From positions 12,715-76,714 of the forward strand of contig CAYNRK010000004.1 in assembly GCA_964399675.1 (NCBI GenBank): a DNA stretch of 64,000 bases, read 5' to 3'. The stretch's first letter is position 1, and every line of letters begins with the position of its first letter. The notes under the pieces were generated by a model, which saw only the letters and a program-made list of their open reading frames with translations, was not told the origin of the DNA and did no database searches. The translations under genes and the position numbers were made by a program. This document shows positions 5,369 through 61,764 of this stretch, piece after piece. Source of the DNA: an uncultured Gammaproteobacteria bacterium (GTDB lineage Bacteria > Patescibacteriota > Patescibacteriia > UBA9934 > GWF2-40-263).

Positions 5369-5413
5369 AAATTACTTATACCAACCGTGACGATCGTCAG
5401 TTATGGTATAAGT
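5369..5413. repeat. 44-bp perfect hairpin (cttatacca..tgacgatcgtca..tggtataag), copy 1
   Basis: Nested palindrome. Near-identical copies at 5948..5992 and 54185..54236. Confidence 0.8.
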
Positions 5414-5441
5414 AATTATTATCAATTCCGTAGTTTGAAAT

Positions 5442-5948: not shown

Positions 5949-5992
5949 AACTTATACCAACCGTGACGATCGTCAATTATGGTATAAGTATT
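5948..5992. repeat. 44-bp perfect hairpin, copy 2 (direct repeat of 5369..5413)
   Basis: Sequence identity to copy 1 except one base in the loop. Confidence 0.8.
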
Positions 5993-6064
5993 TTTTTGAA
6001 ATTTTTTGGAGTGTTTTAGTTCTGTAACAAATTTATTCAGAGATTACAGTATTGATTGTCTTAG

Positions 6065-8743: not shown

Positions 8744-8945
8744 CTCATCTTGCGTCGTTGCGAGGAGCGAAGCGACGAAGCAATCTCCGTGTTATTATGT
8801 CATCCCGACCGAGCGAAGCGAGCGGAGGGATCTCGCATATTCGAGATCTCTCCGTGCGCTCGCTTTGCTCGTTTAGTCGAGATGACAAAGCATGACTACA
8901 CGGAGATTGCTTCGTCAGTCGGCTTCGCCTCCTTCCTCGCAAAGA
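8744..8945. repeat. family-A nested palindromic element
   Basis: Same four modules as 2614..2853, almost base-for-base. Confidence 0.85.
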
Positions 8946-8961
8946 CGCGGGAAATACAAAT

Positions 8962-22505: not shown

Positions 22506-22612
22506 TTGCTGTCATCCCGAGCGAAGGCCCGTCAGACGGGCCGAAGCCGAGGGATCTCGAATATTGCGAGATCTCTCCGCTCGCTTCGCTCGGTCGAGAT
22601 GACATCTAGTAT
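22505..22612. repeat. family-A palindromic element (modules 3 and 4 plus the ggcccgtcagacgggcc submodule)
   Basis: gtcatcccgagcgaag..gagggatctcgaatattgcgagatctctcc..tcgagatgac. Confidence 0.8.
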
Positions 22613-24460: not shown

Positions 24461-24639
24461 AAAAAATTTGAAATTCAAAAGGAGAATTATCAATAAAACT
24501 CAATGTTGTCAATAATACTCATTCAATTTGATTATATCATTGAATTCTCAGCTTAGATACACTCTGGCAATTAAGGAGGTTCAAACGACTAAAACAAAAA
24601 CACCTTCAATTACAGCAAGGGTTTGTTGAGAACAAAAGA

Positions 24640-24690
24640 ATATACTTATAAAATACTTCGCGATCGCGAAGTATTTTATAACAACTTTTC
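24640..24690. terminator. perfect palindrome tacttataaaatacttcgcgatcgcgaagtattttataa (bidirectional terminator-like)
   Basis: Member of the TACTTATA..CGATCG..TATAAGTA hairpin family. Confidence 0.6.
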
Positions 24691-27477: not shown

Positions 27478-27605
27478 TTCCTTTGTCATCCCGAGCGAGC
27501 CCATTCGACTCACTTCGTTCGCTCAGGGCAGGCTCCGCGAGCCGAGGGATCTCGTATATTCGAGATCTCTCCGCTCGGCTGACGCCTCGGTCGAGATGAC
27601 ATTAG
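27478..27605. repeat. family-A palindromic element
   Basis: gtcatcccgagcgagcc..gagggatctcgtatattcgagatctctcc..tcgagatgac. Confidence 0.8.
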
Positions 27606-29677: not shown

Positions 29678-29732
29678 TTAAAAGACGGACATAAGGGTCT
29701 GTTTTTTGTTTGTGATATAATTATTCCTGTCA

Positions 29733-29885
29733 TCTCGACCAAGGCGTTACTTACCCTTGTCATCTCGACCAAGGTGCTACTTACCCTTGTCATCTCGACC
29801 AAGGTGCTACTTACCCTTGTCATCTCGACCAAGGTGCTACTTACCCTTGTCATCTCGACCGAGCGAAGCGAGCGGAGAGATCTTG
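29733..29885. repeat. tandem array of four and a half 30-bp units (ccttgtcatctcgaccaaggtgctacttac) running into a family-A module
   Basis: Direct tandem copies with no spacers. The unit equals the gtcatctcgacc end of family A. Confidence 0.85.
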
Positions 29886-29889
29886 CATT

Positions 29890-30180
29890 ATGGAAGAAAA
29901 ATTTTACTACATTTATATACTTACCAACTCCTCCGAGGCGGTTCTATATGTTGGAGTCACGAATAATTTGATTAGAAGAATGCATGAGCATCAAAATAAA
30001 CTGATAGAAGGTTTTACGAAAAAGTATAACTGTACGAAACTTATTTACTATGAGGTCACCAACGATGTGTACGCTGCGCTAGAAAGAGAAAAACAAATAA
30101 AAAAATGGAATAGAAAAAAGAAGGAACATCTTGTTAATTTAGATAATCCCGAGTGGAAAGACTTGTCAGTCGATTTTTGA
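29890..30180 (+). CDS. GIY-YIG nuclease domain protein (small stand-alone)
   Basis: FYYIYILTN..VLYVGVTNNLIRRMHEH is GIY-YIG with the conserved R and E. The start codon abuts the repeat. Confidence 0.75.
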   Translation: MEEKFYYIYILTNSSEAVLYVGVTNNLIRRMHEHQNKLIEGFTKKYNCTKLIYYEVTNDVYAALEREKQIKKWNRKKKEHLVNLDNPEWKDLSVDF

Positions 30181-30184
30181 TAAT

Positions 30185-30535
30185 TCGAGATTTCTCGCGT
30201 AAAGCGACGTGCCACGTAAAAGCTCAAGCACTCTACGTGGTGTGGTCGCCACGCGACTTTGCGTCGGCTTCGCTCGGGATGACAAAAAAGAAATAATTGT
30301 CATCTCGACCGGAGGCCCGTCAGACGGGCCGGAGCGGAGAGATCTCGAATATGCGAGATTTCTCCGCTCGCTGTGCTCGGTCGAAATGACATAATAATAA
30401 TTGGTCGAAATGACATGTATCGGTTGTCATCCCGAGCGAAGCCGAGGGATCTCGAATATTGGAACAACACGATTCGAGATTTCTCCGCTCGCTTCGCTCG
30501 GTCGAAATGACAGAAACGGCACTGACACATAGAAT
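30185..30535. repeat. cluster of family-A modules, including the cgcgtaaagcgacgtg..cacgcgactttgcg palindrome and three gtcat..gatctcgaatat..atgac units
   Basis: Read directly from the sequence. Confidence 0.85.
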
Positions 30536-35139: not shown

Positions 35140-35400
35140 CCACCCAGTGCGTCATTGCGAGGAGGTCAAAGGCCGACGAAGTCGAGCTCAGCTCGACGAA
35201 GCAATCTCCGTGTAGAGTCATACTTTGTCATCTCGACTAAGCGAGCAAAGCGAGCGCACGGAGAGATCTCGCATATTCGAGATCTCTCGCGTAAAGCGAC
35301 GTGGTCGCCACGCGACTTTACGTCGGCAAGCTCGAGATGACATAATAACACGGAGATTGCTTCGGCCCGTCTGACGGGCCTCGCAAAGACGCAAGTGAAC
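35140..35400. repeat. family-A module cluster
   Basis: gcgtcattgcgagg, the acgtaaagtcgcgtggcgaccacg palindrome, and gatctcgcatattcgagatc. Confidence 0.85.
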
Positions 35401-35402
35401 AT

Positions 35403-36014
35403 ATGAATGAGTTAAACGAACAATTTGAAATTGAGGAAGAGGCAGAGGCTCATGCCAATAGAATTGAAAATGGTGATGCCAGACATCGCCTGGCTATTCA
35501 AATGCTCAAACAAACGCGAGATAGTTTGAATCATGTAATCAATTTGCTTGAAGATGGTGATACTTCGCGTGCCACAAGACACATGGTTGATCTTGTAACA
35601 AATCGTAAAGGCAGCATGGAGGAGTTTGAGTCTGAGTCTGGTGCAGCAATGATTGAAGGGGTTTTTGACGGACAGACAATGGTTGGTGCAGATGGCATTA
35701 GTTATCCAATTCCTGAGAACTATGCATCAAAATCTCAATTGGTTGAGGGTGACATGTTAAAACTATTTTTACGACCAGATGGCACACACGTTTTTAAACA
35801 AATCGGGCCGGTTGATAGACAACGTGTTGTTGGTAAGCTTGAGCATGATTCTCAAACAGCAGAGTATGTTGTCATTCACGATGACAGCATGTATAAAGTA
35901 CTTGATGCAAGCGTTAGTTATCACAAAGGAGTGCCTGGTGATGAAGTGGCAATCTTGATTCCAAAAGGAGGGAAAAGCCGTTGGGCGGCTGTTGAAAGAA
36001 TTATCAATCTATGA
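35403..36014 (+). CDS. hypothetical protein (co-oriented with and overlapping dnaX start)
   Basis: ORF only. Confidence 0.4.
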   Translation: MNELNEQFEIEEEAEAHANRIENGDARHRLAIQMLKQTRDSLNHVINLLEDGDTSRATRHMVDLVTNRKGSMEEFESESGAAMIEGVFDGQTMVGADGISYPIPENYASKSQLVEGDMLKLFLRPDGTHVFKQIGPVDRQRVVGKLEHDSQTAEYVVIHDDSMYKVLDASVSYHKGVPGDEVAILIPKGGKSRWAAVERIINL

Positions 36015-37666
36015 GCCAAACATTATATAGAAGATATCGACCGGAAAAGTTTAAGGATATTTCAGGTCAGGAACATGTTGTTAAAACCCTGCAGAATCAG
36101 CTAAAAGCTGGTTCTGTTGCTCATGCATATCTGTTTACAGGGCCACGTGGGATTGGGAAAACCACAATTGCGCGTTTGGTTGCAAAGGCTATTAATTGCG
36201 AGAAAGTAAAAGAAAGCGAGCCATGCGGAAAATGTTCGTCATGTACAGAGATTACTACTGGAAATGCGCTGGATGTTTTTGAGATTGACGCGGCATCTCA
36301 CACTGATGTTGAAAACGTTCGTGAGAACATTATTAAAAATGTTCGATTTGCACCAAACAAGTTGAATCGAAAAGTTTATATTATAGATGAGGTTCACATG
36401 CTTTCAACCTCTGCTTTTAACGCGCTGTTAAAAACACTTGAAGAACCCCCAGAGCACGCATTATTTATTCTTGCAACAACTGAGATTCATAAAGTTCCTG
36501 AGACGATTATTAGTCGTTGTCAGCGTTTTGATTTTGCAAGGATTGACAAAGCAGAGCTTGTTAAGCGAATGAAAAGGATTTTGAAAAAAGAAGGGGTGGT
36601 TGTGGCTGATGATGTGCTTGCAGAGATTGCACGACACAGCGGTGGATTTGCGCGCGATGCGGAAAGCATGCTTGGCCAAGTGCTGGCATTGGGAGAAAAG
36701 GAGATCAGTATGGATCAGGCAATGCTTGTGCTTCCGGCAACCACAGCAATTATTGTTGAACAATTTATTGATTCAATGTTTTCCAAAGGAGCAGGGGAGA
36801 CAATCAAGCTTTTGAATCAGAATCTTGAGCAGGGAGTTGACCTTAAACATTTTTTGGATGATGTTATTTCAAAGTTGCGCGACCAGCTTCTTGAAACTGT
36901 TTCAGAAGGAAAGGCTTTAGTTTCTGTTGATCAGCTTCGGTTTGCAATTGAGAAATTTTTAAAAGCCCGCAGACATATTAATGTTGATCACTTGCCACAG
37001 CTTCCGCTTGAATTGGCTATTGTGGAGATTGTAAGTGAAGGAGCCAGGGATCAGGAGCTGGCTGTCGGGAATAGCACATCTGCGTCATTGCGAGGAGCCG
37101 AGGGCGACGACGTAAAGTCGCGTGGCAACCACGTTGCTTTACGCAAAGCAGTCTCCGTGGAAAAAAAAATTGAAAAATCGGATTTTAAGAAACAGGAGGT
37201 TGATTTGGATATCCAAGAAACACAACCCCTGTCATCTCGACCGAGCGAAGCGAGCGGAGAGATCTCGCATATTCGAGATCTCCCGGCTTCGTCCAACAAC
37301 AGCGAGGCTTTGCTTGAGACAGTACAAGAGGAGACTGTGTTCGATTCCGTCCCAGTCATATCACTCGAGGAAGTCAAAGAAAAATGGCCAACCGTGTTTG
37401 AGCAAATTCAAGAGTGCAATGCATCCTTGCCGTTATTTATGGAGTCCTGTGAGATTTGTGGAGTAAAAGACGATCATGTTGAGCTTGCGTTTGAATACGA
37501 TTTGCACGTTCAGGCAGTGAACAAAGAAAAGAACCGTGTGTTAATTGAAAAGGTGTTGGAAAAGGTTTTGGGTAAGAAAGTTAAGGTGAGGGCTTTGAAA
37601 ACAGAAAAAAAGGAATCAGATTCGGTCAAAGATTTGCTTGAAGAGTTTGGTGGGAGTGTAGTGTAA
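36011..37666 (+). CDS. dnaX: DNA polymerase III subunit tau/gamma
   Basis: YRPEKF..GQEHVV..AYLFTGPRGIGKTT clamp-loader AAA+ module. Carries an in-frame family-A repeat insertion at 37075..37300. Confidence 0.9.
   Translation: MSQTLYRRYRPEKFKDISGQEHVVKTLQNQLKAGSVAHAYLFTGPRGIGKTTIARLVAKAINCEKVKESEPCGKCSSCTEITTGNALDVFEIDAASHTDVENVRENIIKNVRFAPNKLNRKVYIIDEVHMLSTSAFNALLKTLEEPPEHALFILATTEIHKVPETIISRCQRFDFARIDKAELVKRMKRILKKEGVVVADDVLAEIARHSGGFARDAESMLGQVLALGEKEISMDQAMLVLPATTAIIVEQFIDSMFSKGAGETIKLLNQNLEQGVDLKHFLDDVISKLRDQLLETVSEGKALVSVDQLRFAIEKFLKARRHINVDHLPQLPLELAIVEIVSEGARDQELAVGNSTSASLRGAEGDDVKSRGNHVALRKAVSVEKKIEKSDFKKQEVDLDIQETQPLSSRPSEASGEISHIRDLPASSNNSEALLETVQEETVFDSVPVISLEEVKEKWPTVFEQIQECNASLPLFMESCEICGVKDDHVELAFEYDLHVQAVNKEKNRVLIEKVLEKVLGKKVKVRALKTEKKESDSVKDLLEEFGGSVV
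37075..37300. repeat. family-A repeat inserted in frame inside dnaX (about 75 codons)
   Basis: gcgtcattgcgagg..acgtaaagtcgcgtggcaaccacg..gtcatctcgaccgagcgaagcgagcggagagatctcgcatattcgagatctc lies within the ORF and translates as ..SLRGAEGDDVKSRGNHVALR..SSRPSEASGEISHIRDL... Confidence 0.8.
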
Positions 37667-38012: not shown

Positions 38013-38085
38013 ATTATCCTGAATTTTTAAGCGACAAAAAACTGAAACAGGGCAGCGGTAATGTTGTCTGGAAAAATTTCCTAGA

Positions 38086-38142
38086 AAAAAATACTTATAA
38101 AATACTTCTCGATCGAGAAGTATTTTATAAGTATTTTTTTGG
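38086..38142. terminator. 54-bp perfect palindrome (A-tract tacttataaaatacttctcgatcgagaagtattttataagta T-tract)
   Basis: Bidirectional terminator-like. Same family as 24640..24690, 5369..5413 and 54185..54236. Confidence 0.7.
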
Positions 38143-39315: not shown

Positions 39316-40207
39316 AAAAATTTATTGAAAATTCGATTATTTTTTTGGCAATGTCTTTGCCGGTAACTTCCTCCAAGGCTTTAAATCCAGGATTGGCATT
39401 TACTTCCAAAACAAGCGGTCCACTTTCAGATCTAATAAGATCAACTCCTGCAATTTCAAGGTTAACTGATTTTGCAACTTTTACTGCAAGTTGTTTTTCC
39501 TGATCTGATAATTCAATTTCTTTTCCTGTTCCACCTGTTGAAGTGTTTGCTCTAATGTCTCCAGAAGACGCTGATCGTTCCATTGCGGCAATTACTTTAT
39601 TTCCAATCACAAACGCACGCACATCTTTTCTTTCTGCCTCTTTGACAAATCGTTGAACAATAATTGGATTGTGATCTCGGATTGCTAAGTATTCAGCAAT
39701 TGGCTGAAAAGTCTCTTTGTCTGGCGCATAAAATACACCCTTACCATGAGTTCCAAATGCAATTTTGATAATCACAGGAAAACCAAGTTGATTTGCAAAC
39801 ACTAAAGCTTGTTCAGGATTTTTTGTGATTGCTGATTCAGGATGAGGAATGTCATTATTTTGAAAATGTAGTAATTGTCTAATTTTGTTTTTTGATAAAC
39901 CAAGATGATGCTTGCTGTTTATCAATTTAAATCCAGATTGATTTAAATAATGAATCGGATGCATGTGCAAGCTTGGCTCTTCAATAAAGTTTGGTCTTGG
40001 AAGAATTACATCAAGTTTTGGAAGTGGTTTTCCATCATAAAGATAACCCCCCCTAACCCCCCCTTGAAAGGGGGGGGAACAAAACAAAAAGTTTGGTTCG
40101 TACAATCGAACTGTTTCATGTCCAAGCTCTTTTGCAGCTTCTTCAAGTCGATCAACACTTGAATATTGCTCCCAGGATTGTTTTGAAATAAGAATTCCAA
40201 TTTTCAT
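39314..40207 (-). CDS. RimK-family ATP-grasp ligase (alpha-L-glutamate ligase-like)
   Basis: ATP-grasp C-terminal half (..AGVDLIRSESGPLVLEVNANPGF..). Contains an in-frame family-C element (..[12 protein letters not shown]..). The track N-terminus 40208..40321 is read-through of a family-A repeat. Confidence 0.7.
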   Translation of the reverse strand: MKIGILISKQSWEQYSSVDRLEEAAKELGHETVRLYEPNFLFCSPPFQGGVRGGYLYDGKPLPKLDVILPRPNFIEEPSLHMHPIHYLNQSGFKLINSKHHLGLSKNKIRQLLHFQNNDIPHPESAITKNPEQALVFANQLGFPVIIKIAFGTHGKGVFYAPDKETFQPIAEYLAIRDHNPIIVQRFVKEAERKDVRAFVIGNKVIAAMERSASSGDIRANTSTGGTGKEIELSDQEKQLAVKVAKSVNLEIAGVDLIRSESGPLVLEVNANPGFKALEEVTGKDIAKKIIEFSINF

Positions 40208-40325
40208 ATTATTTCTATATGTCATCTCGACCGGAGACCCGTCTGACGGGCCGGAGCGGAGAGATCTCGAACACGAATATGCGAGATCCCTCGACTCACT
40301 GTCGTTCGCTCGGGATGACACAGTG
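40208..40325. repeat. family-A palindromic element
   Basis: gtcatctcgaccggagacccgtctgacgggccggagcggagagatctcgaacacgaatatgcgagatccctcg..gggatgac. Confidence 0.8.
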
Positions 40326-44032: not shown

Positions 44033-44130
44033 TCACCCCCCTCTTTTTGCGTCTTTGCGAGCCCCCTTTCGCGGAAAGGGGCGAAGCCCGTCCGAACGGC
44101 CGCAAGGCCGGGCGGGCAATCTCCGTTGAG
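44033..44130. repeat. GC-rich family-A variant (gcgtctttgcgagccccctttcgcggaaaggggcgaagcccgtccgaacgg..)
   Basis: Module 1 plus a cccctttcgcggaaagggg hairpin. Confidence 0.6.
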
Positions 44131-44245
44131 AACTATGTAGGACAGTCACGTTGTATAATTTCGGCAGACTCGCTTCGCTCGTGCTGGCGAAATTATACAA
44201 TATACCTGTTGATGGCGTCCTGGAGGTTCGTTGGAGGATTGTGGG
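44131..44245 (+). repeat. family-B repeat (about 110 bp), copy 1
   Basis: gacagtcacgttgtataatttcggcag..ctggcgaaattatacaa..cctgttgatgg..ttcgttggaggattgtg. Near-identical to 45412..45530 and 56521..56635. Confidence 0.85.
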
Positions 44246-45296: not shown

Positions 45297-45411
45297 GAAA
45301 CCCTCCTGGTTTCGCAGAGGTTCAAAAACAAAAACCGTTCGTATATTTACAACGGTTTAAGTGTTCTGTCAACCATGTCGCTTTATACGAAGCAATCTCC
45401 GGGAGACTTTT

Positions 45412-45530
45412 GGGGGACAGTCACGTTGTATAATTTCGGCAGACTCGCTTCGCTCGTGCTGGCGAAATTATACAACGTACCTGTTGATGGTGGCTTGGGG
45501 GTTCGTTGGAGGATTGTGTGAGTGCGGGTG
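45412..45530 (+). repeat. family-B repeat, copy 2 (direct repeat of copy 1)
   Basis: Over 90% identity by eye. Confidence 0.85.
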
Positions 45531-47534: not shown

Positions 47535-47615
47535 AGTTGTCATCCCGAGCGAGGCGCAGCCAAGCCGAGGGATCTCGCATATTCGAGATTTCTCCGCTCG
47601 CTGTGCTCGGTCGAA
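47535..47615. repeat. family-A palindromic element
   Basis: gtcatcccgagcgaggcgcagccaagccgagggatctcgcatattcgagatttctcc..tcgaaatgac. Confidence 0.8.
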
Positions 47616-49355
47616 ATGACAAAAAGAATGCAGTGGCGTGTTGCTGAGAAAATTTTAGAGGAAATCAAAAAACAGTTTCCGGAGATTGATCCGGCTGTTT
47701 TGCAATTATTGTTTAATCGCAACATTAAAACACAAGAAGAGATTGATGTTTATTTAAGTCCGGATTGGAGCCGAGACACTTTTTCACCTCATCTGTTTAA
47801 CAACATGAGTGAGGCGATCAAAAGAGTGTTTGATTCACTTGAGGCCGGTGATGTTATTACTGTTCATGGAGATTATGATGCAGACGGCGTATGCGCTTCG
47901 GCAATTCTAATATCAACACTTAAAGAAATTTGTCGAGAATTTGATTTTGATAAATTAAAAATCACTTCATATATTCCGCATCGCGAAAAAGAGGGTTATG
48001 GCATGTCTGTGGAAACGATTGAGCATCTTCATGAACACGACAAGACAAAACTTGTAATTGCTGTTGATTGCGGAATTAGCAACAAGCCGGCGGTTGATCG
48101 CGGAAAAGAACAGGGAATGGATACGATTATTTGTGATCACCACACAATGCCGGAAGAATTACCTGATCAAGCAATTCTGATTCATCCGTTGGTTCCAGGT
48201 GAAAAGTTTCCAAACAAGCATCTTTGTGGCACAAGTGTGGCGTTTAAGCTTGCAAGCGCTTTGTTGGATGAGGCGCGAACACGCGGGGCATCGTTTCCGG
48301 CGGGTTATGAAAAGTGGCTTTTAGATTTGGTTGCAATCGCAACTGTGACAGATGTTATGCCGCTAACAGGAGAGAATCGTGTGCTTGAAAAGTATGGTCT
48401 TTTGGTTTTGAATAAAACACGAAGAAAAGGCATTCAGAAACTTATTGATATTGCAGGTTCAAAAAAGGGCAAGCTTGATACTGTTTCGATTGGTTTCCAA
48501 CTTGGTCCTCGGATTAACGCAGCCGGAAGAATGACGCATGCCAATGAGGCGCTTGCGCTTATGGTTGAGGAAGATGATTTGCAAGCAACAAAGTTTGCAA
48601 TGCAATTGAATGATCGAAATAAAGAACGACAAGCAGCTTCTCAACAAATGTATTTGCAAGCAAAAAAACTTGTAAAAGACCCTGGCGATCAAAAGTTGTT
48701 GATTGTGTGTCAACAAGGTTGGCCAGCAGGGCTTGTGGGTTTGGTTGCCGGAAAGCTTGTGAATGAGTTTCATGTACCAACGTTTGTTGTTGGACAAGAT
48801 GGTGAAAAATTTGTTGGCTCAGGTAGGAGTATTAAAGGATTTGATATTACAAAGGCCATGCATGCAGCATCGGAACATCTTGATCGATTTGGTGGACATC
48901 CGGAAGCGTGCGGCTTTTCAACCACTGGTCAGGATCGATTTGAAAAAGCAAAAAGTGTAATGCTTGAATATGCTCAAACACAGATTAAAGATGAAATGCT
49001 TTTGCCAATCCTAAATATTGACGCAGAAATTGATTTTAAAGATGTTACATGGGATTTGCAAAAAGAGCTTGAAAAGTTTGAGCCATTTGGTAAGGGGAAT
49101 CCGCAGCCGATTTTTGCCAGCAAACAAGTTGAGGTTGTAGACAAAAGATATGTTGGGGCTGATGGAAAACATTTACGACTGACGGTTCGTTCACCGCGTG
49201 GTACCATAATGAAAATGATTGGGTTTCGATTTGGTGAAATGTTTGATCAACTCGAAATCGGAAAACCAATAGACGTTGCTTATGAGATTGGTGTTAATGA
49301 GTGGAATGGTAATAGGGAATTGCAATTAAAGATTGTGGATATTAAATTGAGGTAG
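47616..49355 (+). CDS. recJ: single-stranded-DNA-specific exonuclease
   Basis: DHH motifs (VHGDYDADGVCA; CDHH), DHHA1 and an OB-fold C-terminus. Track start 47514 is repeat read-through. Confidence 0.85.
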   Translation: MTKRMQWRVAEKILEEIKKQFPEIDPAVLQLLFNRNIKTQEEIDVYLSPDWSRDTFSPHLFNNMSEAIKRVFDSLEAGDVITVHGDYDADGVCASAILISTLKEICREFDFDKLKITSYIPHREKEGYGMSVETIEHLHEHDKTKLVIAVDCGISNKPAVDRGKEQGMDTIICDHHTMPEELPDQAILIHPLVPGEKFPNKHLCGTSVAFKLASALLDEARTRGASFPAGYEKWLLDLVAIATVTDVMPLTGENRVLEKYGLLVLNKTRRKGIQKLIDIAGSKKGKLDTVSIGFQLGPRINAAGRMTHANEALALMVEEDDLQATKFAMQLNDRNKERQAASQQMYLQAKKLVKDPGDQKLLIVCQQGWPAGLVGLVAGKLVNEFHVPTFVVGQDGEKFVGSGRSIKGFDITKAMHAASEHLDRFGGHPEACGFSTTGQDRFEKAKSVMLEYAQTQIKDEMLLPILNIDAEIDFKDVTWDLQKELEKFEPFGKGNPQPIFASKQVEVVDKRYVGADGKHLRLTVRSPRGTIMKMIGFRFGEMFDQLEIGKPIDVAYEIGVNEWNGNRELQLKIVDIKLR

Positions 49356-49378: not shown

Positions 49379-49475
49379 GAAATACTAACCACCCCTAACC
49401 CCTCCTTGAAAAGGAGGGGAATAATGCATGTCGGTTGAAAGTTCTCCCCCTTTTTAAGGGGGAGTTAGAGGGGGT
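49379..49475. repeat. family-C palindromic element (aaccacccctaacccctccttgaaaaggaggggaa) plus second hairpin tctccccctttttaagggggag
   Basis: Direct repeat of 49852..49892. The same core sits in frame inside lepA, ligA, pilD and the RimK-like gene. Confidence 0.85.
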
Positions 49476-49488
49476 TATGATTTTGGAT

Positions 49489-49848
49489 ATGTATAACGAA
49501 CTTTTCAATAAAAAAGAAAAGAAAACTTTCAGACAAAAATTACGAACTGATCCAACAGCAGCAGAAAAACAGTTGTGGCCACATCTGCAAGGTAGACAAA
49601 TAGAAGGATTGAAGTTTCGGCGTCAGCATGGAATCGGAAAGTATGTCGTCGATTTCTATTGTCCTGAAATCAAACTTATTATAGAGGTTGATGGTGATTC
49701 ACATTTTGAACCTGGAGCTCAAGAAAAAGATGTTGAACGAGAGAGAAGTCTTATTAATAGTGGTTTTCGAGTTTTGCGCTTTACCGATCGTGACATTTTT
49801 GATTCGATGGAAGATGTGATTGAAATTATAAAATCAAATTTATACTAG
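49489..49848 (+). CDS. DUF559 / Vsr-like (PD-(D/E)xK fold) endonuclease-domain protein, copy 1
   Basis: ..KFRRQHGIGKYVVDFYCPEIKLIIEVDGDSH..RVLRF.. pattern of the very-short-patch-repair-like DUF559 family. Start set after the repeat-derived 18 codons. Confidence 0.7.
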   Translation: MYNELFNKKEKKTFRQKLRTDPTAAEKQLWPHLQGRQIEGLKFRRQHGIGKYVVDFYCPEIKLIIEVDGDSHFEPGAQEKDVERERSLINSGFRVLRFTDRDIFDSMEDVIEIIKSNLY

Positions 49849-49851
49849 AAA

Positions 49852-49892
49852 TACTAACCACCCCTAACCCCTCCTTGAAAAGGAGGGGAACT
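49852..49892. repeat. family-C palindromic element
   Basis: gaaatactaaccacccctaacccctccttgaaaaggaggggaa. Confidence 0.85.
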
Positions 49893-49903
49893 TTCCAAAA
49901 ACT

Positions 49904-52740: not shown

Positions 52741-52890
52741 ATGTCCCCCTTTTCAAGGGGGACTACAGGGGGTTAGCATTTCATAAGCATAACCACCCCT
52801 AACCCCTCCTTGAAAAGGAGGGGAATAATGCATGTCGGTTGAAAGTTCTCCCCCTTTTTAAGGGGGAGTTAGAGGGGGTTAGCATTTTGA
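52741..52890. repeat. family-C element cluster (gtcccccttttcaagggggac; aaccacccctaacccctccttgaaaaggaggggaa; tctccccctttttaagggggag)
   Basis: Paralogous to 49379..49475. Confidence 0.85.
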
Positions 52891-52892
52891 AT

Positions 52893-53252
52893 ATGTATAA
52901 CGAACTATTTAATAAAAAAGACAAGAAAACTTTTAGACAAAAATTACGTACTGATCCAACAGCAGCAGAAAAGTTGTTATGGTTGCATTTGCAGGGTAAG
53001 CAAATGGAAGGATTAAAGTTTCGGCGGCAGCACGGAATCGGAAAGTATGTCGTTGATTTCCATTGTCCTAAAATTAAACTTGTTATTGAGGTTGATGGTG
53101 ATTCGCATTTTGAATCAGGAGCTCAGCAAAAAGATTCCGAACGAGAGCAATATCTAATCAACAAAGGTCTTCGAGTTTTACGGTTTACTGATCGTGACAT
53201 TTTTGATTCGATGGAGGACGTTGTTGAAATTATTCAATCAAACTTATACTAA
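52893..53252 (+). CDS. DUF559 / Vsr-like endonuclease-domain protein, copy 2
   Basis: About 90% identical to copy 1 at protein level (alignment by eye). Confidence 0.7.
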   Translation: MYNELFNKKDKKTFRQKLRTDPTAAEKLLWLHLQGKQMEGLKFRRQHGIGKYVVDFHCPKIKLVIEVDGDSHFESGAQQKDSEREQYLINKGLRVLRFTDRDIFDSMEDVVEIIQSNLY

Positions 53253-53285
53253 CCACCCCTAACCCCTCCTTGAAAAGGAGGGGAA
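53245..53285. repeat. family-C palindromic element
   Basis: tactaaccacccctaacccctccttgaaaaggaggggaa. Confidence 0.85.
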
Positions 53286-53456
53286 GAATGCGAGATCTTC
53301 AATCAACTATTGACATTTTAGTCTTTTTTTGTTAATTTATTTTTCTCTTTGCCACAGTGTTTAGTGCACCAACTTGATGCCTTAAACGTTGTGGCAAAGG
53401 GCGCTGCTTGCGCATATCGCGTAGGAGTTTGTTGGTTGCCATGGCAAAGGAACACA

Positions 53457-54184: not shown

Positions 54185-54236
54185 TACTTATACCATTCGT
54201 GACGATCGTCAGTTTTGGTATAAGTATTTTTTAGTA
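54185..54236. terminator. perfect hairpin acttatacca..tgacgatcgtca..tggtataagt flanked by A-tract and T-tract
   Basis: Third copy of the 5369/5948 element. Confidence 0.7.
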
Positions 54237-54323
54237 TCCAATAAACAGCTTGCTGTTATAGTTACAAATTGTTGGCAATAATTTTTTGTTTTTTTCGTTT
54301 TCTCAACAAGTTTTTTGTGTTAA

Positions 54324-56379: not shown

Positions 56380-56520
56380 CTTCATCCTGTGTCATTGCTC
56401 TCCCCTGCGTCGTTGCGAGCCCCCTTTCGTGAAACGGGGCGAAGCAATCTCCGTAAAGAATTCCCTCGTGTCCTGCACCTTGTGTCATTGCGAGCGAAGC
56501 GAAGCAATCTTCGTAAAGAA
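56380..56520. repeat. family-A module cluster
   Basis: gtcattgc..gcgtcgttgcgagccccctttcgtgaaacggggcgaagcaatctccgt.. repeated twice. Confidence 0.8.
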
Positions 56521-56635
56521 TTATGGGGGACAGTCACGTTGTATATAATTTCGGCAGTACTCGCTTTGTTCCGTGCTGGCGAAATTATATACAACGTACC
56601 TGTTGATGGCAGACTGAGTGTTCGTCGGAGGATTG
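56521..56635 (+). repeat. family-B repeat, copy 3
   Basis: gacagtcacgttgtatataatttcggcag..ctggcgaaattatatacaa..cctgttgatgg..ttcgtcggaggattgtg. Confidence 0.8.
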
Positions 56636-56656
56636 TGGATTTTTTTAAATAGATTT

Positions 56657-58410: not shown

Positions 58411-58495
58411 TTTGTGTCATTGCGAGCGAAGCGAAGCAATCCTCGTATACGAAGATTGCCGCGTCGGCCTTCGGCCTCCTCGCAATGACACGGGA
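58411..58495. repeat. family-A palindromic element
   Basis: gtcattgcgagcgaagcgaagcaatcctcgtatacgaagattgccgcgtcggccttcggcctcctcgcaatgac. Confidence 0.8.
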
Positions 58496-60464: not shown

Positions 60465-60545
60465 CTCATGTCATCCCGAGCGAGCGCAGCGAGCCGAGGG
60501 ATCTCGCATATCCGAGATTTCTCCACTCGCTGCGCTCGGTCGAAA
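60465..60545. repeat. family-A palindromic element
   Basis: gtcatcccgagcgagcgcagcgagccgagggatctcgcatatccgagatttctcc..tcgaaatgac. Confidence 0.8.
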
Positions 60546-60563
60546 TGACAAGGAAGTAAGGAG

Positions 60564-61124: not shown

Positions 61125-61179
61125 AGAGCGCCAGACCATCTACTCGGTCCAGCGCTCATTTCTTTTTATTATTTTGCGT

Positions 61180-61262
61180 CTTTGCGAGAAAGCCCGTCAG
61201 ACGGGCTGACGAAGCAATCCCCGTAACAACGGAGATTGCTTCACCCCCACTTTTTTCAGAAG
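61180..61262. repeat. family-A palindromic element
   Basis: gcgtctttgcgagaaagcccgtcagacgggctgacgaagcaatccccgt..acggagattgcttc..cgcaacgacgca. Confidence 0.8.
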
Positions 61263-61286
61263 TGGGGGTTCGCAACGACGCAATGA

Positions 61287-61664: not shown

Positions 61665-61750
61665 TATCCTGCGTCATTGCGAGGAGGCCGAAGGCCGACG
61701 AAGCAATCTCCGTACACGGGGATTGCTTCGGTCGCAAAGCTCCCTCGCAA
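61665..61750. repeat. family-A palindromic element
   Basis: gtcattgcgaggaggccgaaggccgacgaagcaatctccgtacacggggattgcttcggtcgcaaagctccctcgcaaagacgc. Confidence 0.8.
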
Positions 61751-61764
61751 AGACGCAGAGGCAA

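Follow-up and report, generated by a model that had tools for sequence, protein, structure and literature searches.

The stretch of DNA analysed here (contig CAYNRK010000004.1 of assembly GCA_964399675.1, positions 12,715 to 76,714; 64 kb in all and hereafter termed the window) carries a dense family of nested palindromic repeats, termed family A, one cluster of which (30185-30535) directly follows a small gene for a putative GIY-YIG nuclease. Family A is best explained, with a probability of about 0.75, as a local expansion of hairpin repeats that bear a CGTC or TGTC tag, of the kind described as CGTC REPs or Ssn-related motifs (SRMs), and these hairpins would be the cognate DNA sites of a small nuclease of the Ssn type. 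It is not a new kind of element; rather, it is a greatly expanded variant of the CGTC-tagged REP and Ssn-related hairpins together with their nuclease gene. What is new is a unit architecture that is missed by the published motif yet predominates near the protein family, alongside the nesting of pairs, the density of the repeats, their in-frame insertion into dnaX and the polarity of the heterodimers. The Ssn proteins (cd10448) consist of a single GIY-YIG domain; they bind hairpin repeats when these are single-stranded DNA and not otherwise, and their cut falls approximately 3 nt 5' of the motif. The repeats, known as NTS (CGTCATTCCCGCGMAVGCGGGAATCYRG) or more broadly as SRMs, typically flank the Ssn genes (Chenal et al. 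2025, PMC11893778).

The repeat system is identified by the nuclease gene, because this gene lies inside a split pair of repeat units of the type termed P. The open reading frame (ORF; 29890-30180), which was overlooked in the first-pass annotation of this DNA, encodes 96 amino acids and occupies the exact centre of the pair: the P(+) unit ends 4 nt before the ATG and the P(-) unit starts 5 nt past the stop codon. The only Pfam families that the protein matches above threshold are two related ones, GIY-YIG (PF01541; 2e-17) and T5orf172 (PF10544), both over residues 6-78; as in the Ssn family there is a single domain, with no additional DNA-binding domain, and all 27 residues that are invariant in the family are present. 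A paralogue with 76% identity is found on another contig (L004), where it is likewise embedded in P units, and both genes are thus flanked on each side by hairpin repeats, as is the case for Ssn genes. Membership of the Ssn family has been defined by a blastp E-value below 1e-10 and coverage of at least 75% of CAX49033.1 (PMC11893778), for which a 94-aa ORF of Neisseria gonorrhoeae stood in here. The 96-aa protein is 44% identical to this ORF over 89 of its 94 amino acids without gaps (E-value 3e-30 in the pairwise comparison, 4e-20 when 7.3 Gb were searched). In its chromosome the gonococcal ORF is the sole tblastn match, and it is surrounded by seven exact NTS copies within 1.67 kb; judged by its length, single copy and NTS context, and not by accession, it is probably the SsnA orthologue. 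Provided that it is, the 96-aa protein belongs to the Ssn family by the published similarity criterion, and its nuclease activity and specificity are putative. The gonococcal locus was taken from the PLSDB records NZ_CP119140.1 and NZ_CP119142.1 (L181), which are labelled as N. gonorrhoeae plasmids and are really 2.17-Mb chromosomes with almost no annotation.

The repeats had been described as a set of inverted-repeat modules. Such modules do exist, but they make better sense as directional hairpin units of two kinds: modules one and two correspond to the halves of a unit termed Q, module three to unit P, module four to the junction within a P pair and module five to an insert in the apex. Unit P (TGTCAT-YYCGA..apex..GRRGAT-CTCG), defined by a regular expression, is present in 23 copies. 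Unit Q (GCGTCWTTGCGAG..apex..CGAAGCAATCYCCG) is found in 14 copies by the pattern (GC)GTCWTTGCGAG..apex..CGAAGCAATCYCCG, with two degenerate copies in addition, which brings the total to approximately 39 units (23 P and ~16 Q) that cover ~2.7 kb of the 64 kb at ~0.6 units per kb. Both kinds follow a common plan, in which an unpaired 5' tag, (T/C)GTC, precedes a 5-bp basal stem beginning with A-T and T-A pairs (P units begin TGTC-AT, and Q units CGTC-(A/T/G)T). The stem is usually topped by a tandem G.A/A.G mismatch and then by an exchangeable apical hairpin, often GCGAAGC or GCGNAGC, whilst the 3' end consists of the returning stem and a short tail, CTC(C)G. Reduced to its minimal form, P reads GTCATCCC-GA-GCGAAGC-(C)GA-GGGATC and Q reads GTCATTGC-GA-GCGAAGC-GA(A)-GCAATC. 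The apex varies from 7 to 60 nt, with inner lengths of up to ~80 nt, and has been observed as GCGAAGC, GCCCGTCAGACGGGC, a 33-nt CGTAAAG palindrome, GTCGAGCTSAGCTCGAC and CCCCCTTTCGYGRAAMGGGG; the first three of these are each found in both P and Q frames, and an apex of the form GCGN(N)AGC is present in 17 of 36 window units.

Units are joined as convergent pairs with their tags outward and their tails 4-6 nt apart (10 P pairs and 6 Q pairs, most of them heterodimers), and it is this pairing that generates the long palindromes. Three composites, at 2622, 8751 and 35148, hold a P pair at the centre of a Q pair; those at 2622 and 8751 share 144 nt at 97% identity (the second copy at 8773-8916), and copies that are 96-97% identical are found at separate loci. 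The mosaic appearance that was stressed in the first-pass annotation arises because the apex is interchangeable between units. The mosaicism is real, but it is less unusual than was claimed, because a paired, heterodimeric, mosaic and intragenic organisation has already been described for CGTC-tagged REPs (Di Nocera et al. 2013, PMC3733652).

That family A exists, with modules shared between its copies as first described, is beyond reasonable dispute, since the recurrences lie far above chance. Within the 64-kb window the 14-mers GCGTCTTTGCGAGG and GAAGCAATCTCCGT have 11 and 13 matches at one mismatch or fewer, against 0.01 and 0.02 expected, respectively; the centre GATCTCGMATATKCGAGAT recurs at nine loci, GCCCGTCAGACGGGC occurs five times, and CGTAAAGTCGCGTGGCGACCACGCGACTTTACG occurs twice with one further diverged copy at 30200-30260. 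All 16 loci initially listed were recovered by a combination of repeat search and k-mer map, together with one extra locus at 45385-45520. Long nested helices are predicted by folding at every family A locus; indeed, when 30185-30535 was folded as single-stranded DNA, the energy was -89.8 kcal/mol compared with -54.4 +/- 4.1 in shuffled sequences (z = -8.7). The high density claimed for the repeats holds for the window and for the second contig, L004 (13 units in 10.7 kb). The notion that the copies are unrelated low-complexity GC-rich spacers, or products of assembly, is refuted and retains practically no probability: 14-mers that recur 11-13 times and 144-nt copies that are 97% identical reveal shared modules, and family A is not an assembly artefact because independent ENA and JGI assemblies (L001-L003) carry the identical sequence, one 30-bp tandem copy aside.

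The part of the element that appears to be conserved is the hairpin of the single unit. The P stem occurs as ATCCC/GGGAT, ATCTC/GAGAT and ATTTC/GAAAT, the partners of a pair usually differing, and internal complementarity is kept in 22 of the 23 P units. When covariation was assessed across 22 window P units (7 distinct rows), three of the six pairs were changed on both sides with 95% of cells paired, and the score of 0.397 (0.175 in shuffles, 1 in 500 of which reach it) collapsed when the partner was slid. This covariation points to the unit hairpin as the conserved structure, although a small set of related copies makes it supportive and not proof. The GCGNAGC-type motif is an extraordinarily stable DNA mini-hairpin (PMC13037366), and its presence in the unit alongside G.A pairs fits a structure that acts at the level of DNA.

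The association between gene and hairpin extends far beyond this genome. Relatives of the 96-aa protein number at least 7,995 in a word-indexed search, and an exhaustive search returned 12,934 clusters (50% identity) at E-values of 1e-3 or below, 4,329 of them at 1e-10 or below; viral sequences contributed only 11 homologous loci among 2.9 million contigs. Linkage was assessed at 80 homologous loci from species-representative genomes (54-69% protein identity) in more than 15 phyla, including Planctomycetota, Calditrichota, Clostridia, Chloroflexota, Cyanobacteria, Nitrospirota, Spirochaetota, Bacteroidota, Proteobacteria, Deinococcota, several Patescibacteria lineages and others, using unit-specific patterns and a generic tag-plus-stem search in place of the published SRM regular expression. 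Within 300 bp of the gene, a hairpin with a GTCWY tag and a 5-bp stem was found upstream at 70, downstream at 73 and on both sides at 65 of the 80 loci. Tagged hairpins numbered 7.2 per kb close to the gene, compared with 0.84 per kb at distances above 500 bp, and a complementary 5-mer followed the tag within 100 nt in 52% of cases near the gene compared with 14% far from it. Clean hairpin-gene-hairpin modules are found at many loci; at L025 the perfect 31-bp inverted repeats that enclose the gene are units in their own right, and in L014 and L059 the module occupies an orthologous site, its stems being CCC/GGG versus CCT/AGG. Among 60 units that adjoin homologous genes, the first stem pair is A-T in all 60 and the second T-A in 56, stem position 6 is G.A in 46 and position 7 is A.G in 44, the apex is GCGN(N)AGC in 23 (0.27 expected) and the median inner length is 12 nt. 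Homologues in Calothrix, Pirellulales, Christensenellales and Ignavibacteriaceae are flanked by units whose stem, ATTGC, is of the Q type, and one such unit is located 271 nt upstream of the Nostoc homologue. The Neisseria NTS core itself is found beside the gene at L021, L037 and L086 and ~860 nt away at L065, and some of the homologues that carry it belong to other Patescibacteria.

Several observations weigh against this assignment. The published SRM pattern, HGTCWYN(0-2)YYVSBRHN(0-5)WNVSBRGN(0-2)RNCYNB, has no match in the window (mean 0.16 in shuffles) and matches at only 11 of the 80 homologous loci, as GA-type and long-apex units fall outside it, and the dimensions of the four described families of CGTC REPs (stem 8-9 bp, loop 4-5 nt) are not those of the window units. 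The gene lies directly inside a tags-outward pair at only 30 of 76 homologous loci, the right arm adjoining the nuclease gene of the window has a degenerate stem, and the window holds no nuclease gene flanked by Q units. Single units show no excess stability by nearest-neighbour DNA parameters (z ~0), only the long inter-unit palindromes being stable; because the folding energy of the single unit is unremarkable, the case for the unit hairpin is built on covariation and on motifs to which the energy model gives no weight. No target-site duplication or direct repeat flanks any inspected pair, and there is no polymorphism of empty and filled sites among L001-L003 and L004-L006, which are identical to the window or to each other save one 30-bp tandem copy. 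A metagenome scan with DnaX found nothing closer than 46-51% identity, and the nearest CysS is 71% identical; no pair of empty and filled sites was obtained.

The elements of the window are as follows.

2622-2846: composite Q(+)[P(+) P(-)]Q(-), the P pair nested in the centre of the Q pair.
8751-8949: composite Q(+)[P(+) P(-)]Q(-).
22510-22604: P pair, tags outward; left apex GCCCGTCAGACGGGC; supplies a spurious TTG start for ftsX.
27484-27601: P pair, tags outward, with long apical inserts.
29718-29847, plus strand: 30-bp tandem array, ~4.3 copies, of the tag-proximal half of P (TGTCATCTCGACC + 17 nt); one copy fewer in other assemblies.
29848-29885, plus strand: P(+) unit, left arm of the nuclease gene; folds as a 5-bp stem, a 3-bp stem and a GCGAAGC apex.
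29890-30180, plus strand: Ssn-like GIY-YIG nuclease gene, 96 aa (putative, by Pfam and homology).
30186-30284, minus strand: P(-) unit, right arm of the nuclease gene; its apex holds a long palindromic insert and its basal stem two mismatches.
30298-30415: P pair, left apex GCCCGTCAGACGGGC; duplicated terminal half unit at 30392-30415.
30425-30512: P pair of a minimal 30-nt P(+), a 20-nt spacer and a P(-); the terminal ATGACA forms a -35-like hexamer upstream of cysS.
35148-35393: composite Q(+)[P(+) P(-)]Q(-), its inner part opposite in orientation to that of the 2622 and 8751 copies.
37081-37157, plus strand: Q(+) unit in frame in dnaX; relatives L088 and L089 lack the peptide in their DnaX.
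37230-37290, plus strand: P(+) unit and truncated P(-), in frame in dnaX.
40220-40320: P pair between minus-strand genes, of inverted polarity (TCT unit, then CCC unit).
44047-44243, plus strand: degenerate Q(+) unit (44047-44125), then an R element (44128-44243).
45385-45518, plus strand: Q tail fragment, then an R element.
47538-47621: P pair; spurious N-terminal extension of recJ.
56388-56637, plus strand: two Q(+) units (56409-56453 and 56484-56513), then an R element, between ligA and gatC.
58413-58491: Q pair between gatA and lgt.
60469-60550: P pair.
61175-61282: Q pair.
61670-61757: Q pair with a 4-nt spacer.

As first reported, the copies are mostly intergenic, and the ends of neighbouring ORFs lie only 2-40 nt away in a genome that is ~92% coding; the neighbours are housekeeping genes such as ligA and gatC or gatA and lgt, from which the elements are set off by a few nucleotides. 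The spurious N-terminal extensions that had been suspected were also borne out, in that the longest ORFs of ftsX, recJ and the rimK-like gene begin within an element, and the start of the lgt ORF (58485) overlaps the end of the adjacent Q pair by 7 nt. Upstream of cysS (30507-30535), the ATGACA of the last P unit and a TAGAAT 17 nt downstream match a sigma-70-like promoter, which is a consensus match only. The R element is a separate sequence of ~116 nt that forms a long AT-rich hairpin (ACGTTGTATAATTTCG..CGAAATTATACAACGT) and is present at 44128-44243, 45403-45518 and 56516-56637; it always adjoins a Q unit or Q fragment, and two copies bracket a minus-strand gene resembling purine nucleoside phosphorylase.

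The host is a Patescibacteria bacterium, the best named relatives of its CysS (64-71% identity) belonging to Candidatus Uhrbacteria, Parcubacteria and Patescibacteria. Two syntenic relatives (L168 and L169) keep the gene order mraZ-rsmH-ftsL-X-cysS, carry one or two units in 16-21 kb and have no nuclease/P cluster between ftsL and cysS; by this comparison, the expansion of family A is lineage-specific. In dnaX (36011-37666), the Q and P units are found in frame between the ATPase module and the DnaX_C domain, and the DnaX proteins of the nearest relatives are gapped at exactly the peptides that these units encode. An 8-aa length difference between two LigA variants was considered as a repeat insertion and rejected, as it is not at a repeat.

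The arrangement of the P pairs is polar. Relative to the genes on either side, the unit with the ATCCC stem lies upstream of its ATCTC or ATTTC partner in all 10 informative heterodimers, and heterodimers among minus-strand genes are inverted accordingly (the P pairs concerned are at 2700, 8798, 22510, 30425, 40220, 47538 and 60469 of the window and at 1955, 2398, 9761 and 9902 of L004). Both gene-bearing P copies show the opposite arrangement relative to the nuclease gene. In addition, the tag-proximal half unit is duplicated in tandem at the outer edges of elements (29718-29847 and 30392-30415), and similar tandem duplications of half units are found in other phyla and in N. gonorrhoeae (L007, L021, L026, L058, L065, L086 and L181). 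These duplications stand at the outer edges, where Ssn reportedly cuts, and may be scars of the nuclease cut site. Both the polarity and the duplications may have a bearing on how the elements arise.

By analogy with the Ssn proteins of Neisseria and Wolbachia (PMC11893778), the nuclease would bind the unit as a hairpin in single-stranded DNA and cut a few nucleotides 5' of the tag, and this activity, directly or via repair, might then spread the units. One pair would carry the nuclease gene at its centre, in the manner of an insertion sequence with hairpin ends, and the other pairs would be gene-less miniature derivatives that had spread with its help. Nesting would come about when cargo, either a P pair inside a Q pair or a gene inside a P pair, is lodged between the partners, and cargo in the apex would produce the mosaic appearance. 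A bolder and more tentative proposal, against which the odds lean, is that the hairpin-gene-hairpin module is an autonomous single-strand DNA transposon whose sole protein is the 96-aa GIY-YIG nuclease; P and Q pairs would then be non-autonomous miniatures. Their insertions, of a polarity fixed with respect to the direction of genes or of replication, would fall in intergenic DNA, within one another and, in frame, within essential genes. If this were true, a GIY-YIG single-strand DNA transposase would constitute a class not yet demonstrated in bacteria.

The same recognition step could serve a different end, and the restriction of DNA offers an explanation that differs from the preferred one only in why the repeats are abundant. 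The host would maintain the repeats as part of a domesticated system of single-strand DNA restriction or transformation control, as opposed to a selfish element, in which they mark DNA that is cut when it enters the cell or is exposed as single strand. This function has been published for NTS and SsnA in Neisseria meningitidis (PMC11893778), uptake or transfer machinery is plausible here given the window's genes for an A24 prepilin peptidase and a TraG/VirD4-like coupling protein, and the strong conservation of the protein (55-70% identity across phyla) is in keeping with it. It is nevertheless doubtful, as the in-frame units of dnaX and the near-identical composites at unrelated loci resemble insertion and not designed placement, very few units are found in close relatives, and no clustering by gene class is visible in the window.

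Explanations that leave the nuclease out of account, or give it another target, fare less well. The elements could be structures selected by the host on RNA or duplex DNA (3'-end stabilisers, attenuators, terminators, or sites for protein binding or supercoiling, as has been suggested for classical REP/BIME), with the nuclease gene incidental; their placement so close to ORF ends in a densely coding genome, the great stability of the long hairpins, the tracking of local gene direction by heterodimer orientation in 10 of 10 cases and the -35-like hexamer before cysS would all suit such a role. However, no element is followed by a T tract or scored in a scan for intrinsic terminators, although terminator-like hairpins do occur nearby (family C; 29679-29708), and an Rfam search of the window returned only tRNAs and no family matching the elements. 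Together with the in-frame placement in dnaX, the lack of a T tract speaks against a mainly RNA-level role; moreover, conservation falls on the tag, on the short stem of the unit with its G.A pairs and on the DNA-type mini-hairpin, not on the long helix, relatives do without the elements, and the linkage to the nuclease gene crosses phyla, all of which makes this explanation unlikely. A still smaller probability attaches to homing, whereby the GIY-YIG gene would be a free-standing homing endonuclease gene that cuts empty P pairs as duplex DNA and is copied into them by repair; P pairs would then be its homing sites, and would not descend from the element that bears the gene. Homing endonucleases of the GIY-YIG class are well known, and the ORF with 1-2 nt on each side does fill the exact centre of a P pair, the empty site reading GATCTCGCAT followed directly by ATTCGAGAT and the filled site ..GATCTTGCAT-T-ATG..TGA-TA-ATTCGAGAT. 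The protein, however, is a bare 96-aa catalytic domain with no DNA-binding domain, duplex DNA is left uncut by its characterised relatives (PMC11893778), copies with the gene numbered only two beside dozens of empty pairs, and the Q units, single units and intragenic units would be left unexplained.

Taken as cognate hairpins of an Ssn-type nuclease, the repeats extend the Ssn nuclease and hairpin-repeat system to Patescibacteria, where much of what little non-coding DNA there is consists of them. The commonest unit near the protein family, with its 5-bp stem, tandem G.A mismatch and GCGNAGC or other apex, escapes the published search motif, and because GA-type units are missed the published censuses probably undercount the repeats. 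A variable apex on a covarying stem provides a natural panel of candidate substrates for tools based on single-strand DNA nucleases. Cross-phylum hairpin-gene-hairpin modules (55-70% protein identity, >15 phyla), lineage-specific expansion, in-frame dnaX insertions and heterodimer polarity all bear on the question of mobility. For annotation, it should be borne in mind that the elements create spurious ORFs and N-terminal extensions in the genomes of this group.

Other repeats were observed alongside family A. A second nuclease-plus-repeat system consists of two DUF559/Vsr-like ORFs (49435-49848 and 52839-53252) that are 90% identical and each bracketed by TAACCMCCCCTAACCCCYCCTTGAAAAGGRGGGGAA, the whole spanning 49387-49896 and 52791-53291. 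Solo copies of TAACCMCCCCTAACCCCYCCTTGAAAAGGRGGGGAA are located at 40045, 45789, 46449, 52233 and 54815, and lie in frame in lepA (twice, as a 12-residue peptide), ligA, the A24 prepilin peptidase gene and the rimK-like gene; a coarse search of the literature turned up no paper in which DUF559 is linked to repeats of this sort. Perfect AT-rich palindromes of ~40 nt with a central CGATCG are found in intergenic DNA at 5374-5427, 5950-6003, 24636-24689, 38085-38138 and 54186-54239; those at 24.6 and 38.1 kb, which fall within the stretch that was scanned, score as terminator-like, and the 38.1-kb copy, which has T tracts on both sides, does so on both strands. In the Uhrbacteria relative L169 (15200-15800 and 9700-9900), a different, 88-aa GIY-YIG gene is bracketed by the repeat TTATTGCCTGAGCTTGTCGAAGGC, which is direct upstream (two copies), inverted downstream (two copies) and also present upstream of the L169 cysS.

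Amongst known systems, the elements of the IS200/IS605 group resemble family A, as interpreted here, in that their ends are imperfect hairpins recognised in single-stranded DNA, cleavage takes place a few nucleotides from the hairpin foot, and there are no classical terminal inverted repeats (TIRs) recognised as duplex DNA; they differ in having TnpA (HUH Y1) as transposase, both hairpins on the same strand and a defined target tetra- or pentanucleotide. [quoted passage not shown] Correia elements, however, have duplex TIRs and a TA target duplication; no target duplication was seen in the window, where it is the unit and not the whole element that is the conserved structure. Nor does family A conform to a classical MITE, as direct repeats do not flank the inspected pairs and the only linked gene is that of the GIY-YIG nuclease and not of a DDE transposase. 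REPIN-RAYT and BIME follow the same logic: the hairpin is short and tagged, it replicates in the form of inverted doublets, one or a few protein genes have these hairpins on either side, and the clusters are mosaic. RAYT systems, in contrast, use a GTAG tag and an unrelated HUH/Y1 enzyme, and family A with its YGTC tag is not of the REPIN/RAYT type; among the window ORFs that were put through Pfam (not every ORF), no RAYT was found, and no nuclease or transposase besides GIY-YIG and the two DUF559 genes.

The closest likenesses are to the CGTC-tagged REPs and to Ssn with NTS. The CGTC-tagged REP super-family, whose members include dRS3 and the Rickettsia RPE-4 and RPE-6, is defined by a CGTC or TGTC tag, a stem that opens with A-T and T-A and a short tail; it is found mainly as tags-outward pairs, often heterodimers, with copies inside replication and repair genes, and no dedicated enzyme is known for it (PMC3733652). 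The window units share the tag, the first two stem pairs and the unpaired tail, as well as the outward pairing, the frequent heterodimers, the insertion of DNA between partners and the intragenic copies in replication and repair genes, here in dnaX; they differ in a tail of CTC(C)G where that of CGTC REPs is CCA, and in having a nuclease gene within the pair. The Ssn repeats have been likened by their authors to insertion sequences and to REP/RAYT, although mobility was not shown by them (PMC11893778). Relative to the published Ssn system, with its continuous 8-bp stem and loop of 3-5 nt, the window units have a 5-bp stem, a G.A/A.G mismatch and an apex of 7-60 nt, their pairs are nested with tags outward 4-6 nt apart, and two unit types coexist in one genome at ~0.6 units per kb; the host is one of the Patescibacteria. 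In common with Ssn and NTS, the window combines a single-domain GIY-YIG protein of ~95 aa, a gene flanked by directional hairpins and an abundance of these repeats in the same genome, the units of which carry a (C/T)GTCAT tag, a stem led by A-T and T-A and a C-rich tail.

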